In this document: piece after piece, positions 4,693 through 31,851 of the stretch
Layout of the letters: each line of letters begins with the position of its first letter
Numbering within the stretch: the first letter of the stretch is position 1
Assembly: GCA_025839675.1 (NCBI GenBank)
Contig: CP104013.1
Location: forward strand, 3,630,001-3,662,000
Length of the DNA: 32,000 nt
Reading direction: 5' to 3'
Source of the DNA: Candidatus Lokiarchaeum ossiferum
GTDB taxonomy: Archaea; Asgardarchaeota; Lokiarchaeia; Sigyniarchaeales; Promethearchaeaceae
Notes under the pieces: model-generated
Databases searched by the model: none
Told to the model about the DNA's origin: nothing
The model's input: the letters and a program-made list of their open reading frames with translations, nothing else
Made by a program: the position numbers and the translations under genes

Positions 4693-6624
4693 ATGAAATT
4701 ACGACGAAACTTATGGATGGCATTGTTTATGATGGCCTTCATAGTTCCAGTGATTGCCTCTGTGAGCGCTACAACCGCTCCAGAACGGGCAACAATTGTC
4801 TGGTCCACTGGCTATGATACTCAACATGACAATTACAATCCTTGGACAGGTTCTCCTGCCTTCGGAATTGCTCTAATGTATGAACCTCTTTTTGGTTTAA
4901 ACGGAGCTATGAACGATACTTTAATTCCTGTCATTGGCACCGAATATTCTTGGAATGCTGATGGTACCGAATTGACTGTAAAGATTAATGAAAAAGCCAA
5001 ATGGTCTGATGATGAAGTTTTAGATGCTGATGATGTTATTTACAGCTATGAAATCGCTCAATATCAACCACGATGGACTGGTATGCAAGATATCATTGCT
5101 TCTATGGAAAAAATTTCTGCAACAGAAATGAAATTTGTTATGACAGCAGAAAAGAAATTTTCCTACCGTATGGAACAATTCTTATACACTGAAATTCCAA
5201 TCGTTCCTGAACATGTATGGTCAGAAATTAATGATGGAAATGTCACCAAAGATTTAGATCTCTTTAAGAATGATTGGCTAAATGCCTCCTTCAATGAAGA
5301 TTGGAAAGTCGCTTCTGGTCCATATTTCCCATACTTCCGTGATTTAACCGCGGGAGAAGAAATTTATAAATTACGTGATGATTGGTGGGGTATAAATACT
5401 CTACACATGGATATTCCTAATTACTCTGGAACTCCTGAAGCAGAGTATATCGGAATGCGAAAATATGCAGATAATACTGCTAAAGATGCAGCTATTTTAA
5501 CTGATGAAATTGATTTACATGCTGGATTTTACTCAAGCGTTTGGACTGCCTTAGGTCGAAATGATAATATTGAAACTTGGTTTGGAAAAAGCTTTGATGA
5601 ATATTACTTAGCCCTCGGGGCTATTATTGAAGTGGCTCCAAATCACATGAAATTTCCATTCAATCAGTTATGGTTCCGACAAGCCTTAGCTTATTCTATT
5701 GATTATGATTCAATCGAGGTAGCTGCTTCTGGTGGATATTGGAATCGAGCTCGACAAGGAGTTATTGATAATCGTTCTGCAGGTCATAAATCACTTTACA
5801 ATGAATCCATTCAAGAAGAATATGGTATTGACTTGGATGTAGCAAAAGCTATTGATATTCTTAATGAAAGCTGTTATCAAGTTGATGGTGTTTGGTATAC
5901 TGATGATGTTCCAGTAGAATTCCAAGGAACATTAGGTGCAGAAGCTGATGAAGATTCTGGTCATGCTGGATTCAATATTGCCTTAGGGGGCTATGAAATT
6001 TTAGTTCCAGCTGGGTGGACCGATGTCTGCATTGCAACATCTATGTGGGCAGGTGATTTCTCTGATATTAACATTACTACCACCAAGCGGGAAGTAGATT
6101 TCTGGAATGGTTGGAGAGTGAAAATTATGGAAGGCGATTTTGATATGGTTATGCAATGTTGTACTCCTCATTTAGTAAATGATCCATACACCGTTTTAGG
6201 TGGGTGGAGAGGAACTGCCAACTTACCATGGGATAATGCTTCTCACTGGGAAAGTCCTGAATATGAAGCACTCTATCAAGAGTTTGATACCGCCAAAGGA
6301 GATGAGCGTGTTGCTGTTGCTTCTCAAATGCAAGAATTATTAGCATCTGAATTGCCAACAATTGTTTCCCATGCAAATGGATTCTGGTATTTGACCAACA
6401 CAAAGTATTGGGATAATTGGCCAAGTGCAGAAAATGAATATCAAGATGCTCAAACTGCGTATTCAATAAATCGAATGGCTTTGAAACAACGAATGTATTT
6501 GGGTTTAATTCAATCTGAATCTACCGGTGCAAGCATTCCATGGAATGGATTTACAGCTTCCTTAATTGTCGGAGTTCTTAGTGTGCTCTCAGTTCAAATA
6601 ATTCGAAGAAGAAAACAAAATTAA
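4693..6624 (+). CDS. ABC transporter substrate-binding protein, family 5 (Opp/Dpp-type; predicted beta-glucoside/oligosaccharide binding), C-terminally membrane anchored
   Basis: Family-5 SBP block ...YSWNADGTELTVKINEKAKWSDDEVLDADDVIYSYE. Signal peptide MKLRRNLWMALFMMAFIVPVIASVSA starts at ATG 4693; the ORF-track ATG 4651 adds 14 residues that do not look like signal sequence. C-terminal TM (LIVGVLSVLSVQII) plus RRRKQN. First gene of an SBP-permease-permease-ATPase-ATPase row. Confidence 0.85.
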   Translation: MKLRRNLWMALFMMAFIVPVIASVSATTAPERATIVWSTGYDTQHDNYNPWTGSPAFGIALMYEPLFGLNGAMNDTLIPVIGTEYSWNADGTELTVKINEKAKWSDDEVLDADDVIYSYEIAQYQPRWTGMQDIIASMEKISATEMKFVMTAEKKFSYRMEQFLYTEIPIVPEHVWSEINDGNVTKDLDLFKNDWLNASFNEDWKVASGPYFPYFRDLTAGEEIYKLRDDWWGINTLHMDIPNYSGTPEAEYIGMRKYADNTAKDAAILTDEIDLHAGFYSSVWTALGRNDNIETWFGKSFDEYYLALGAIIEVAPNHMKFPFNQLWFRQALAYSIDYDSIEVAASGGYWNRARQGVIDNRSAGHKSLYNESIQEEYGIDLDVAKAIDILNESCYQVDGVWYTDDVPVEFQGTLGAEADEDSGHAGFNIALGGYEILVPAGWTDVCIATSMWAGDFSDINITTTKREVDFWNGWRVKIMEGDFDMVMQCCTPHLVNDPYTVLGGWRGTANLPWDNASHWESPEYEALYQEFDTAKGDERVAVASQMQELLASELPTIVSHANGFWYLTNTKYWDNWPSAENEYQDAQTAYSINRMALKQRMYLGLIQSESTGASIPWNGFTASLIVGVLSVLSVQIIRRRKQN

Positions 6625-28664: not shown

Positions 28665-29189
28665 ATGGCTATTTACAAATATGGTGAATTTACTCCCAAA
28701 ATTGATCCATCAGCATGGATTTTTCCTTCAGCTGATATTATTGGAAATGTGGAAGTCGGAAAAGGGGTGTATATTGGAGCTGGTGCGGTATTGCGCGGGG
28801 ATTATTGTAAGATAATTATTGAAGAGGGTGCGGCAATAGAAGAGCAAGTTTGTATTCATGCATCGCCAGGTAGCGAAACGATTGTAAAAAAAAATGCTGT
28901 AATCGGTCATAAAGCCATGTTGCATAAGTGCATAATTCATGAAGATGCTGTCATTGGAATGAATGCGGTTGTAACTAATAATGCAGAGATTGGTGAAGGT
29001 GCCATCATTGCTGAAGGTGCTGTTGTGAAAAATCGCGATATAATTCCCCCTCATATGATTGCTGCAGGTGTTCCAGCGAAAATAAGAGGCCCGGTACCAA
29101 AATCAACTCAAAGAGTGTGGTTGCAAGCAGGAAAAATTTATCGCCAACTCGCCATTGATTACAAAACAAAATTGATAAAATTGAAATAA
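28665..29189 (+). CDS. Gamma-class carbonic anhydrase-like / left-handed beta-helix (hexapeptide repeat) protein, YrdA/CaiE/PaaY family
   Basis: From ATG 28665 the product reads MAIYKYGEFTPKIDPSAWIFPSADIIGNVEVGKGVYIGAGAVLRGD..., with His pattern CIHASPG...IGHKAMLHKCIIHEDAVIGMNAVV typical of the family. The ORF-track start 28518 adds 49 low-complexity residues overlapping the divergent gene. Confidence 0.85.
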   Translation: MAIYKYGEFTPKIDPSAWIFPSADIIGNVEVGKGVYIGAGAVLRGDYCKIIIEEGAAIEEQVCIHASPGSETIVKKNAVIGHKAMLHKCIIHEDAVIGMNAVVTNNAEIGEGAIIAEGAVVKNRDIIPPHMIAAGVPAKIRGPVPKSTQRVWLQAGKIYRQLAIDYKTKLIKLK

Positions 29190-29219
29190 CTTGTTATTTT
29201 TTTCTATTTGGAGTTTATT

Positions 29220-29318
29220 GTGATAGGTAATCAAATTAACCAACTTTCTACTTCTGTTCGCCCCTATTCACAGATAGTTTTCTCCGAGCATCATCATCAT
29301 ATGCATCATCATTGTTAA
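29220..29318 (+). promoter_or_regulatory. Candidate his-operon leader ORF (32 codons, 7 His codons among the last 9 sense codons)
   Basis: GGAG (29210-29213), a 6-nt spacer, then GTG 29220. The translation is (M)IGNQINQLSTSVRPYSQIVFSEHHHHMHHHC*, with CAT codons at 29289-29300 and 29304-29312 and TAA at 29316-29318. It lies 170-190 nt upstream of hisC on the same strand. Confidence 0.4.
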
Positions 29319-29398
29319 ATGATGATTAGCTGCAATGCAACATTCGTTCGTTTCTGATTTTCCGTAGTAATTCTATTCAGCTATGACATTTTTACAAA

Positions 29399-29418
29399 GA
29401 AAATCAGTGATTTTTTTT
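29399..29418 (+). terminator. Small A/U-rich hairpin running into a T8 tract between the leader ORF and hisC (candidate attenuator terminator)
   Basis: GAAAATC (29399-29405), loop AGT, GATTTTT (29409-29415), with the T-run at 29411-29418. The 5' arm can alternatively pair with CTGATTTTC at 29354-29362 (9 perfect bp). Confidence 0.35.
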
Positions 29419-29485
29419 ACACAAATTAAAACCAACTCTTGAAAAATGGAGGTTAAAATCATGCAAAATACAAACCCAGGTGAAT

Positions 29486-30667
29486 ATGTTCACCTCAAAT
29501 TCAAATATGCAAACCAAGCCTAATACCCCGACAATTCGTCCAAGATCTATTATAGATCGAATCGTAGATTACGTCCCTCCCATTGAAAACCGGATGGGAA
29601 AGTTACGATTGGACTTTAATGAAAATACGATTGGTTGTTCTACCAAAATTTTGGAAGCCATACGTGAACTAACTGTTGAAGATTTCGCAGTATATCCGAA
29701 TTATTTGCCCTTTAAACAGAAACTTTCAAATTATCTTGAAGTTTCACCAAAAAATCTTCTGTTAACCAATGGAACCGATGAAGCGATAAAACTTGTCCTA
29801 GAAACTTATCTCGAAGCCCAAGATGATATTATTCTTCCCTCTCCGACCTTTTCCATGTTTGAAGTTTATGCTTCAATAGTTGGGTGTAAAATTACGAAAG
29901 TCCTTTACAAAAAAGATTTATCGTTCCCTTTTGATCAAACAATTGCCTCCATTACTTCGGATACTAAATTAGTAGTGTTGGTAAATCCAAATAACCCCAC
30001 AGGTACTGCAATATCCGAGGAAGAAATTTCTCAAATTCTCCAATTTACTCAAAAGAGAAATATTTTGGTGTTGATTGATGAAGCTTATTATCAGTTTTAT
30101 GGTAAATCGGCTATAAAATATTTGAATGAGTTTAAAAATCTAATAATATTGCAGACTTTTTCTAAAGCATTTGGATTAGCAGGTATTCGATTAGGATATA
30201 TAATCTCCAATCCATCCACAATCCAAACCTTACAAAAAGTACTATCTCCCTATAGTGTAAATAAATTAGCAATAGTTGCTGGTTCTGCAGCATTATCCGA
30301 TTTAGAATACATATCTGCATATACTAGGGAAATTCGTAAGAATCGACTATTTTTAGCTTTAGAAATTCAAAAACTTGGATTTAGTACTTTTCCATCTCAA
30401 GCTAATTTCATAGTGGTGAATTTCAAAGAGAAATGTGAGTTTTTATGTAATCAGTTAAAAATGGGTGGAATATTGACCCGAAATCGATCTAAATATCCTT
30501 TATTACAAAATTGCTTGCGAATCACTATTGGAACCAAGTACCAATGTGAGTTTTTACTAAAAGAAATTAAATTTCTCTTAGATCAATGGGATTTTTTTAC
30601 AAAAAAAGGGTATTCCATCCCTGATAATTTAATTAAAATACGAAATCAAAATGGTGCATGGAGATAA
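29486..30667 (+). CDS. hisC: Histidinol-phosphate aminotransferase
   Basis: Class-II aminotransferase motifs: ...RLDFNENTIG..., LVNPNNPTG, PLP-lysine block TFSKAFGLAGIRLGY. It is first in a his gene row. The start is ambiguous: GTG 29480, ATG 29486, or ATG 29507 (the last gives the most typical N-terminal length). Confidence 0.9.
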   Translation: MFTSNSNMQTKPNTPTIRPRSIIDRIVDYVPPIENRMGKLRLDFNENTIGCSTKILEAIRELTVEDFAVYPNYLPFKQKLSNYLEVSPKNLLLTNGTDEAIKLVLETYLEAQDDIILPSPTFSMFEVYASIVGCKITKVLYKKDLSFPFDQTIASITSDTKLVVLVNPNNPTGTAISEEEISQILQFTQKRNILVLIDEAYYQFYGKSAIKYLNEFKNLIILQTFSKAFGLAGIRLGYIISNPSTIQTLQKVLSPYSVNKLAIVAGSAALSDLEYISAYTREIRKNRLFLALEIQKLGFSTFPSQANFIVVNFKEKCEFLCNQLKMGGILTRNRSKYPLLQNCLRITIGTKYQCEFLLKEIKFLLDQWDFFTKKGYSIPDNLIKIRNQNGAWR

Positions 30668-30672
30668 ATAAA

Positions 30673-31260
30673 ATGAGAACAACCAAATTAACACGAAATA
30701 CAAATGAAACTCAAATTGACATATCCATTAATTTGGATGGAACCGGAATTTATGATGTCAAAACACCAATAGGATTTTTAACTCACATGTTAGAATCTTT
30801 TGCAAAACATGGCCTATTTGACTTAGAATTAAATTCTATGGGGGATTTGGAAGTCGATCAACACCACCTAGTGGAGGATGTTGGAATTGCTTTAGGGGAA
30901 GCTTTCGATCAAGTTTTAGGGGATAAAAAAGGGATCAATCGAAATGGATTCTGTATTTATCCTATGGATGATTCTCTTGTCACTGTAGCTTTAGATCTCG
31001 GAGGAAGGCCTTATTTCTCTTTTTTGGGAGAATTCCGACGAAGATACTGCGGAGAGTTGGATCTTGATTTACTTGAGGATTTCTTTAGAGGTTTTTCGAG
31101 TGCATTGAAAATAAATTTGTTTATTGAGATAAATCAAGGTACAAATGATCATCACAAAGTAGAGGCGATTTTCAAAGCCCTTGCCAAAAGTTTGATGCAA
31201 GCATGCAGTATTAATTCTCGTATCAAAAATATTATTCCGAGTACAAAAGGTGTGATCTAA
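30673..31260 (+). CDS. hisB: Imidazoleglycerol-phosphate dehydratase
   Basis: MRTTKLTRNTNETQIDISINLDGTG..., plus the DQHHLVEDVGIALGEAF and NDHHKVEAIFKALA motifs of IGPD. GGAG (30660-30663) lies 9 nt upstream of ATG 30673. The ORF-track ATG 30658 is an alternative. Confidence 0.92.
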   Translation: MRTTKLTRNTNETQIDISINLDGTGIYDVKTPIGFLTHMLESFAKHGLFDLELNSMGDLEVDQHHLVEDVGIALGEAFDQVLGDKKGINRNGFCIYPMDDSLVTVALDLGGRPYFSFLGEFRRRYCGELDLDLLEDFFRGFSSALKINLFIEINQGTNDHHKVEAIFKALAKSLMQACSINSRIKNIIPSTKGVI

Positions 31261-31851
31261 ATGGATGATAACATTGCAATAATTGATATTGGGAGTGGAA
31301 ATCTCCAAAGTGTTCAAAAAGTCCTCAAATACTTAGGAAAAGATTCAGAAATTATCGTTAATCCAGAGAAAATATCCAAGTTTGACAAAGTGATTTTACC
31401 TGGCGTAGGAAATTTTGGAAAAGTGATGGAGGGTATAAGATCAAGAGGATTTGAGACGCCAATCAAAGAAATTATCAATCAAAATACAAAATTCCTTGGG
31501 ATTTGTGTAGGGATGCAAGTTTTGTTTGAAAGTAGTGATGAGAGTCCGGGATGTCCAGGGCTATGTTCATTCAAAGGAAAAGTCCTCAAATTTCAAAAGG
31601 GAAAAATTCCCCAAATTGGATGGAACCTCCTTGAACCACGCGAATCTAAAATAATTTCTAAAGGGTATGTGTATTATGTCAATTCTTATTATGTTCAGCC
31701 TGAAAATGAATCCTTAATCTCTGCAACATCAGATTATTATGGAGAATTTACTGGTGCTATTCAATTCAAAAACCTCACGGCAGTACAATTCCACCCAGAA
31801 AAAAGTGGGGAATATGGTATTGAATTTTATCGGAGATGGTTATCGTGCTAA
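31261..31851 (+). CDS. hisH: Imidazole glycerol phosphate synthase, glutamine amidotransferase subunit
   Basis: [27 protein letters not shown], catalytic Cys block [11 protein letters not shown], and [14 protein letters not shown] lies 8 nt upstream of the ATG. Confidence 0.92.

Follow-up and report, generated by a model that had tools for sequence, protein, structure and literature searches.

The 32,000 nucleotide (nt) stretch of Candidatus Lokiarchaeum ossiferum DNA analysed here (contig CP104013.1), referred to as the window, contains at its right end the beginning of a histidine biosynthesis operon on the forward strand (29486–31851). The genes hisC (29486–30667), hisB (30673–31260) and hisH (31261–31851) were assigned by the Pfam domains Aminotran_1_2, IGPD and GATase respectively, and annotation of a sister strain shows that the operon runs on past the window end with hisA and hisF-hisIE. 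The hisC protein showed 98% identity to that of Candidatus Lokiarchaeum ossiferum and CP163304.1, which represents the sister strain, shared 98.0% nucleotide identity with the window over 5.5 kb. This identifies the host as Lokiarchaeum, an Asgard archaeon closely related at strain level to a cultured species, and bears out the archaeal origin that an earlier reading of the sequence without database searches (the sequence-only reading) had allowed for. Between the upstream LbH gene and hisC lies a candidate histidine leader (29170–29485) consisting of a short open reading frame (ORF) with a run of histidine codons, RNA helices and a T tract.

The leader ORF, which we have designated ORF1, has 32 codons (29220–29318, forward strand), with a GTG start codon at 29220 and a TAA stop codon at 29316–29318, and encodes (M)IGNQINQLSTSVRPYSQIVFSEHHHHMHHHC, the last residues of which are EHHHHMHHHC. 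A Shine-Dalgarno-like GGAG (29210–29213) is located 6 nt 5′ of the start codon. Seven CAU histidine codons (29289–29312), the proposed site of ribosome stalling, fall among the last nine sense codons in two clusters of four (29289–29300) and three (29304–29312). The sequence-only reading had described this ORF, its start, stop and ribosome-binding site and its histidine codons, and every coordinate was correct. Among stop-free frames in all six reading frames of the 32-kb window, seven histidines in 10 codons was unique, the next best having 4–5.

Leader ORFs of this kind, the first leader type, were found in five archaeal lineages with 47–98% identical hisC: the window together with its 98%-identical sister strain (L081), L082, L083, L001, and L091/L092 together with the 96%-identical L213/L214. 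In L082, L083, L001 and L091/L213 the ORF lies directly 5′ of hisC and has 5–7 histidine codons within its last 8–14 sense codons. The peptides are MIGNQVKIRSSFVRAYHHHSLHHLKHHC in L082 (hisC 74% identical to that of the window), (M)IGFNNKQSSILGNSYPQFIFYVHHHLLHHPKHHC in L083 (62%), a peptide ending in YQIIFYDLQHSVHHHHHSY in L001 (59%) and MISGKFYSYLKSKISFDFTFHILHYNPHHHKQHS in L091/L092 and L213/L214 (47%), each followed by a stop codon. The spacing of 6 nt between the Shine-Dalgarno-like tetramer and the start codon was common to the window (GGAG), L082 (AGTG) and L083 (GGTG). The genes found 5′ of the leader vary by lineage and include an LbH gene, a dapA-dapB-dapF operon, a DUF362 gene and an isochorismatase gene. 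The gene 3′ of the leader was invariably the first gene of a his operon, which in L091 was complete (hisC-B-H-A-F/IE-G-D). The annotations of these contigs do not call the leader ORFs, which are 28–39 codons long, or their RNA elements. The ORF with its histidine codons is therefore a conserved feature tied to his operons, being present in five lineages with differing neighbours and, as a related type described below, in four further contigs. A pattern scan of metagenome contigs (TGTTGCATTKNAGCN{12,20}ATGATG) added none, as the 80 matches listed were all chance matches with no histidine-rich ORF.

Alignment of the leaders showed that the clustering of histidine codons is kept while the residues that interrupt it differ in each lineage, with the frame between start and stop maintained, and that the peptide outside the histidine run drifts between lineages. 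A C-terminal HHC was common to the window, L082 and L083. Between L091 and L213 there were three nonsynonymous changes, in the N-terminal part of the peptide, and a change of stop codon from TAA to TGA; the 95 nt following the stop showed no differences. Only three differences were found between the window and the sister strain within 29190–29485 (29383 A>C, deletion of an A at 29419 and 29422 C>A), all of which fall outside ORF1 and the other elements named below (r1:r2, the post-stop motif, ORF2, r3:r4 and U8). A search of the leader peptide against 1.84 billion representative proteins returned zero homologues, and the five leader peptides gave zero matches to Pfam-A and NCBIfam at E values up to 10, a result limited by our assumption that these libraries contain his-leader peptide models. 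The sequence-only reading had also considered a (CAT)n microsatellite, which is made unlikely by the lineage-specific interruptions with the frame kept, and a small metal-binding peptide, which is also unlikely since the rest of the peptide drifts and the histidine spacing varies. The pattern fits an ORF whose codons matter rather than a repeat or a functional small protein.

Immediately 5′ of ORF1 is a candidate archaeal promoter, a B recognition element (BRE)/TATA-like sequence TTGATAAAATTGAAATAA (29170–29189, forward strand) that overlaps the last codons of the LbH gene. An element of the type GAAAAcTT(g/a)A(t/a)A(t/a) was found 35–45 nt 5′ of the leader start in the window, L082, L083 and L001, in which the upstream genes differ. 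The BRE/TATA-like element would put the start of leader transcription just past a T7 tract (29197–29203) that lies between the candidate TATA sequence and the leader Shine-Dalgarno sequence and is the terminator of the LbH gene. The T7 tract had been raised as a difficulty in the sequence-only reading, which supposed that the leader would need either read-through from the LbH gene or a promoter inside it. This caveat is settled by the role of T7 as the LbH terminator and the conservation of the BRE/TATA-like element in four lineages; with a candidate promoter just 5′ of the leader, read-through would not be required.

A survey of T runs in the window revealed runs of 6–13 T within 30 nt past the stop codons at 6624, 11169, 14223, 19729, 22569 (reverse strand), 27708 and 29189. 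These operon-end runs were usually without a hairpin, and no T runs were found between co-operonic genes (those of an ABC transporter and hisC-hisB-hisH). As T runs in this genome mark the ends of operons and never separate co-operonic genes, the T8 tract at 29411–29418, which had been proposed as a terminator from the sequence, is a terminator-type signal within the his 5′ leader. At the level of the signal, a terminator (U8 in the RNA) thus separates the leader ORF from the first gene of the operon, and this is the proposed attenuation site. The T tract begins at a similar distance from the leader stop codon in the relatives: 92 nt in the window (T8), 91 nt in L082 (T6), 106 nt in L083 (T6) and 87 nt in L001 (T7). 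The helix that adjoins U8 is an addition, as the ordinary terminators of the genome have none.

Two helices were conserved in the leader RNA. The hairpin r1:r2 (29288–29338), present in the minimum free energy (MFE) structure, pairs the histidine codons (29288–29313) with the sequence around and after the stop (29318–29338) so that the stop codon lies at the apical loop. It contains the 9-bp hairpin (a) of the sequence-only reading (29305–29313 with 29318–29326), which proved to be perfect and was present in both the MFE and the centroid structures. Complementarity in r1:r2 is between CAUCAU and AUGAU(G) and between (U)UGCAU and AUGCA(A), and the duplex energy was matched by 23, 65, 12, 28 and 3 of 1000 shuffled partners in the five lineages. 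The post-stop region also includes a conserved motif (29329–29342), GCUGCAAUGCAACA in the window and GCUnAAAUGCAACA in other lineages, with the invariant core AAUGCAACA.

The second helix, r3:r4 (29354–29407), pairs CUGAUUUUC (29354–29362) with GAAAAUCAG (29399–29407) across a 36-nt loop and ends 3 nt before U8. It corresponds to helix (b) of the sequence-only reading, and its 9 bp are indeed perfect. A helix adjoining the U tract is found in every lineage, but its sequence varies: the arms are GAUUUUCUU and AAGAAAAUC in L082, UGUAAUUC and GAAUUACA in L083, GUAUCU and AGAUAU in L001, and UUUUAUUC and GAAUAAAA in L091. In all five lineages the 3′ arm ends 1–5 nt before the oligo-U tract. The duplex was beaten by 6, 6, 4, 35 and 73 of 1000 shuffles in the window, L082, L083, L001 and L091 respectively, and a perfect stem adjoining the T tract as good as the native one was reached by 2 of 2000 shuffles of the window, 34 of 2000 of L083 and 42 of 2000 of L091. 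The fold z-score was significant for the window only. A bacterial terminator scan does not call the A/U-rich r3:r4 helix with U8.

The sequence-only reading had further proposed that helix (b) competes for 29399–29405 with a small hairpin (c) running into T8. Hairpin (c) extends to 10 bp in the window (−4.7 kcal/mol, z −2.4), but it was found only in the window, L081 and L082, with identical sequence, and was absent from L083, L001 and L091; this competition is not supported. A pairing of TAGCTG (29327–29332) with CAGCTA (29378–29383), suggested as a link between (a) and (b), is not supported either: both sequences are present, but the pairing is weakened by the sister-strain change at 29383 (A>C) and is absent elsewhere. 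A perfect 15-bp palindrome, AAAATCAGTGATTTT (29400–29414), extends across the 3′ arm of helix (b) into T8. The palindrome is part of a 19-nt block that the window and L082 share without differences, is missing in L083, L001 and L091, and could be either the RNA hairpin (c) or a DNA-binding site.

A candidate mini-ORF, designated ORF2 (29335–29367, MQHSFVSDFP, forward strand), is suggested by the geometry of the region. Its AUG is in the invariant motif, it runs over the 5′ arm of r3:r4 and its stop codon is 2 nt past that arm. An ORF opens from the same AUG in all five lineages, with 10 codons in the window, 11 in L082 (MQQCFRQIFFK), 15 in L083 (MQHRSFILNLLCNSH), six in L001 (MQQRPL) and five in L091 (MQHGF). 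The stop is 2–5 nt past the 5′ arm of r3:r4 in the window, L082 and L083, and 2 nt before it in L001. The distance from the ORF2 stop to the U tract was 46, 44 and 46 nt in the window, L082 and L083 despite the unequal lengths of these ORFs and a 1-nt indel between the window and L082. In the MFE structures of four of the five lineages the ORF2 AUG pairs with a histidine codon.

Beyond the T tract, a GGAGGU Shine-Dalgarno sequence (29448–29453) precedes a 20-codon upstream ORF (uORF), uORF3 (29461–29523, MQNTNPGEYVHLKFKYANQA), which overlaps the hisC start in another frame; the whole occupies 29448–29523. uORF3 is of the same length, with a GEYVH core, in L082 and L083. The hisC AUG (29486) is predicted to lie in the loop of a 7-bp hairpin, AGGUGAA-UAUG-UUCACCU (29478–29495), with a weak, poorly spaced GGUGA in the stem. 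This hairpin forms in the window and L082; L083 could pair here through wobble changes, although this is not its MFE structure. The arrangement suggests that hisC translation may be coupled to that of uORF3.

Leader-peptide attenuation is a textbook form of gene control by coupled transcription and translation. To our knowledge, all established cases are bacterial; transcription and translation are coupled in archaea as well. On balance, the ORF, its linkage to his genes and the RNA elements that follow it make it probable that 29170–29485 is a cis-acting, ribosome-mediated histidine sensor, that is, a leader-peptide attenuator, for the hisC-B-H-A-F/IE operon. The leader transcript would begin just 5′ of GGAG (29210) and ORF1 would be translated co-transcriptionally. 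With plentiful charged tRNA-His the ribosome would clear the seven CAU codons and be released at 29316, r1:r2 would pair, r3:r4 would form right before U8 and most transcripts would end at the U tract. With charged tRNA-His scarce, the ribosome would stall on the CAU run and hold r1, freeing the post-stop sequence; the outcome at r3:r4 and U8 would then be altered and more polymerases would read into uORF3 and hisC. The best available link from stalling to termination, which is possible although rather doubtful, is a relay through ORF2: the freed sequence bears the AUG at 29335, and with the 5′ arm of r3:r4 covered by a ribosome on ORF2, a helix that assists termination would be blocked.

Several results weigh against an attenuator at this position. 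Folding the RNA with the footprint masked of a ribosome on the stop codon, or on the first, a middle or the last histidine codon, still predicted r3:r4 in the window, L082, L001 and L091, and before r4 is made r3 was not consistently captured by the post-stop sequence. The r2:r3 duplex energies were at chance, with 329, 715, 181, 459 and 927 of 1000 shuffles as good in the five lineages. These models therefore show no switch. Masking the histidine codons lowered the modelled opening cost of the ORF2 start by only 0.5–2 kcal/mol, and the gap of 10–16 nt between the ORF1 stop and the ORF2 AUG is such that reinitiation at ORF2 under plentiful histidine would reverse the logic. The histidine hairpins alone were marginal against dinucleotide shuffles (z −0.7 to −1.75). 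The expectation in the sequence-only reading that the leader would fold better than shuffled sequence was upheld for helix (b) and hairpin (c) but not for the whole 281-nt region (z −0.54). Similarly, its expectation of His-codon ORFs with T tracts and covarying helices in relatives was upheld for the ORF and T tract in further lineages, but RNAalifold on a MAFFT alignment gave a 2-bp consensus only and thus no consensus structure, because the AT-rich arms do not align by sequence. The helix of L091 is not followed by a long U tract. Archaeal polymerase needs no hairpin to terminate at oligo-T, and U8 might therefore act as a terminator whatever the RNA structure. Finally, the his loci of other Promethearchaeota (L084, L086 and L089) had no such leader ORF and only five lineages carry the first leader type; the hisC genes that have a leader group with six protein clusters only, and the sample could not exceed five lineages.

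The elements present could be arranged in other ways. A classical four-segment bacterial attenuator, in which a 2:3 antiterminator (or, in the version of the sequence-only reading, competition between (b) and (c) for 29399–29405) decides termination, is consistent with the presence and conservation of helices 1:2 and 3:4 and the U tract. In addition, pairing is possible between GAUGAUUAG (29321–29329) and CUGAUUUUC at eight of nine positions, including two G-U pairs, and between GAUUACG and UGUAAUU in L083. Stalling slightly increases the predicted fraction of r3 that pairs with the post-stop region in the window, L082 and L083, and hairpin (c) beats shuffles in the window. However, r2:r3 is at chance, r3:r4 persists in the ribosome-masking simulations and no antiterminator was predicted for any ribosome position. 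Hairpin (c), besides its absence from three lineages, shows no covariation where it is present and consumes the U tract itself, and the TAGCTG/CAGCTA pairing is weakened by a single nucleotide polymorphism in a 98%-identical strain. Neither the classical four-segment model nor the (b)/(c) competition is supported, and we regard an attenuator of this design as improbable. Control of translation or of mRNA fate, in which stalling would unmask ORF2 and then uORF3 and hisC, or would stabilise the mRNA, with U8 unregulated, would account for the pairing of the ORF2 start with a histidine codon in four of five MFE structures. It would also suit the hisC start, which is placed in the loop of a hairpin, has a poorly spaced Shine-Dalgarno sequence and is overlapped by uORF3 with a strong one, and analogous overlapping uORFs occur at hisG in L215 and L216. 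This appears unlikely given that approximately 95 nt and U8 separate ORF2 from uORF3 with no conserved pairing linking them, that U8 is a strong terminator-type signal in this genome, that the modelled unmasking is small and that leader and operon are separated in the second leader type by a tRNA gene, the processing of which would sever the leader from the mRNA.

The leader might instead be a separate small unit, encoding a histidine-rich micropeptide or a small RNA with its own promoter and an r3:r4/U8 terminator, while the his operon is transcribed from a second promoter (TATA sequence T8A or AAATTAAAA, for instance) at or after the T tract. Promoter-like sequence, Shine-Dalgarno sequence, ORF and terminator are all there, T tracts in this genome normally precede the next promoter, AAATTAA is found 4–6 nt past the T tract in the window, L081 and L083, and the C-terminal HHC of three lineages and HHHC of L017 could bind metal. 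Against such a unit, the linkage to his genes holds in nine contigs with differing neighbours, the peptide is otherwise poorly conserved, with variable histidine spacing and no homologues in protein libraries, and ordinary terminators here lack an adjoining helix. The spacer between the T tract and the Shine-Dalgarno sequence is also 29–49 nt long and A-rich, with no TTTATATA-like box, and we consider there to be little chance that the two are transcribed independently. Still less credible, and in our view very improbable, is that CATCAT...ATGATG, TTGCAT...ATGCAA and the palindrome AAAATCAGTGATTTT are DNA operators for a histidine-responsive transcription factor and that the ORF is incidental. 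The 10-nt invariant motif is conserved beyond the needs of pairing, and such sites would explain why the window and L082 are identical over 19 nt around the palindrome. But each lineage retains the reading frame of the histidine codons together with a conserved start, stop and Shine-Dalgarno spacing, the repeat arms are 30–40 bp apart and the palindrome is missing from three of the five lineages.

As a putative histidine attenuator, the leader was compared with hisL of E. coli and Salmonella (Rfam His_leader, RF00514). Both have a short ORF with a run of seven histidine codons directly 5′ of a his biosynthetic operon, histidine codons in the 5′ strand of a hairpin, and a helix and U tract between the leader and the first gene, and the presumed signal in both is the supply of charged tRNA-His as read by a translating ribosome. 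They differ in that the Lokiarchaeum leader is in an archaeal host, has an A/U-rich helix with a 36–41 nt loop before the U tract, would be terminated by an archaeal oligo-T or factor-dependent mechanism and has extra parts, namely the invariant post-stop motif, ORF2 and the uORF3 that overlaps the first gene. Moreover, helices 1:2 and 3:4 are present here while 2:3 is at chance, and the mutually exclusive set of hisL is absent. The sensing part is like that of bacterial hisL, but the element is unrelated to hisL in sequence and is not a member of the hisL family, as the covariance-model, peptide-family and antiterminator tests were all negative. Rfam at the gathering score gave no match in the window or in eight related loci, tRNA aside, and His_leader was not among the matches up to E = 10 over 29100–29600; there was likewise no Rfam match to a T-box riboswitch.

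Other RNA families were also considered and set aside. Matches to box C/D small RNAs (29313–29452) scored 13–16 bits against thresholds of 38–50, with non-canonical spacing, and are probably due to chance; AUGAUGA (29319–29325) and CUGA (29354–29357) are present, and in L082 and L083 CUGA follows after only 3–4 nt. A decayed tRNA at r3:r4 was not supported, there being no tRNA match up to E = 10, nor was mimicry of the tRNA-His anticodon arm by the post-stop motif, which resembled one tRNA only. A kink-turn was not supported, as the spacing of the boxes was wrong, although no kink-turn model was run.

General mechanisms of transcription termination in archaea include intrinsic termination at oligo-T and termination dependent on aCPSF1/FttA. 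Whatever its details, the output step of the leader must use archaeal termination; U8 would likewise be the signal, and polarity would result if termination depended on the polymerase being followed by a ribosome or not. In ermC, and in ermA with its two leader peptides, a stalled ribosome opens a hairpin in which the start of the following ORF is concealed, the signal being an antibiotic together with the nascent peptide and the output translation of the resistance gene. The r1:r2 hairpin similarly contains the ORF2 AUG, but ORF2 ends on a helix adjoining a U tract and the signal here would be amino-acid supply. One source deals with archaeal termination factors (PMC9371683). Another describes mycobacterial leaderless short ORFs that are cysteine-responsive, rich in the cognate codon, located at the start of polycistronic transcripts and act as attenuators (bioRxiv 10.1101/834739). 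The likeness to the archaeal leaders is in the short ORF rich in cognate codons, with the second archaeal type probably leaderless too, and the differences are in domain, amino acid and sequence. Surveys of bacterial leader-peptide attenuators indicate that these evolve rapidly and independently of sequence similarity (PMC2965389, PMC1262725). Such bacterial attenuators, including the putative ones of the loci L022–L080 described below, share the same general design and are not homologous to the archaeal leader.

A search of one library of papers found bacterial amino-acid-responsive leader attenuators, including some outside Proteobacteria, and general statements on uORFs; within that library, no such attenuator in archaea was found, nor any leader of this kind that makes use of the archaeal termination mechanisms. 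A ribosome-stalling histidine attenuator would therefore be new for archaea. If the reading is true, the conservation of a histidine leader in a cultured Asgard archaeon, and in eight or more further archaeal contigs, would show attenuation logic in the domain closest to eukaryotes. It would make a defined element of 300 nt available for studying how a ribosome signals to the archaeal polymerase or to a termination factor, and would justify a systematic search for cognate-codon leaders before other archaeal amino-acid operons.

A second leader type was found 5′ of tRNA-His and hisG-led operons in four contigs: L013 (3040–3420), L017 (3060–3400), L215 (1–320) and L216 (2140–2460). Two of these are from metagenome-assembled genomes labelled Nanoarchaeia and Methanosarcinales and two are from run assemblies, and their hisC is 46–56% identical to that of the window. 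A TTTATATA box is followed after approximately 22–25 nt by a mini-ORF (M..V..IHC and stop), which is probably leaderless. This is overlapped by an ORF ending in HHH, HHHH or MHHHC before its stop, after which come a conserved AAUUCUUKCAUYGUU, a tRNA-His(GUG) gene and then, with its Shine-Dalgarno sequence, a small uORF overlapping the hisG start. Rfam identified the tRNA-His gene in each of the four contigs and ARAGORN in two of them; those of L013 and L017, which contain an insert reading as an intron, were missed by ARAGORN and found by Rfam. The L017 leader ends in HHHC. Its end has 17 nt identical to the window (ATGCATCATCATTGTTA), and a start region GAGTT...ATTGTGA is also common to both. 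From these shared sequences, the two leader types appear to have a common ancestry, with histidine as their common theme. In this second type, the tRNA gene for the amino acid presumed to be sensed thus sits within the leader of the operon that makes that amino acid.

In L216 the leader start (2155–2180, TTG GTT GTA TTC ACT GTC, encoding (M)VVFTVGK) resembles the hisG start (2436–2460, ATG GTT GTA TTC ATT GTC, encoding MVVFIVVPK), and the mini-ORF resembles the uORF before hisG, with GCIHCR in both. The origin of the L216 leader may lie in a partial duplication of the operon's 5′-end. Taken together, the two types could tentatively be viewed as an attenuator family of the archaea's own, with a two-ORF relay and oligo-U- or FttA-dependent termination in Lokiarchaeia, replacement of the helix by tRNA-His in other, uncultured archaea, and a start derived by partial duplication of the hisG 5′-end in L216.

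Dozens of bacterial loci (L022–L080) from Acidobacteriota (Terriglobia, Bryobacterales) and Acidimicrobiia also contained short ORFs with 5–8 clustered histidine codons, located approximately 2.6 kb 5′ of hisC at the presumed start of the his operon. Examples are found in L029 (1376–1438), L059 (1347–1442) and L023 (1228–1338), and one such peptide reads FMFFTHAHHHHHSRWRAGV before its stop. These look like bacterial histidine leader peptides outside Proteobacteria. Some relatives encode a hisG-hisC fusion (L215, 284–1939, and P0013), in which HisG and aminotransferase domains are joined in a protein of 551–625 amino acids, and in many relatives labelled DPANN hisC is fused to a HAD phosphatase domain.

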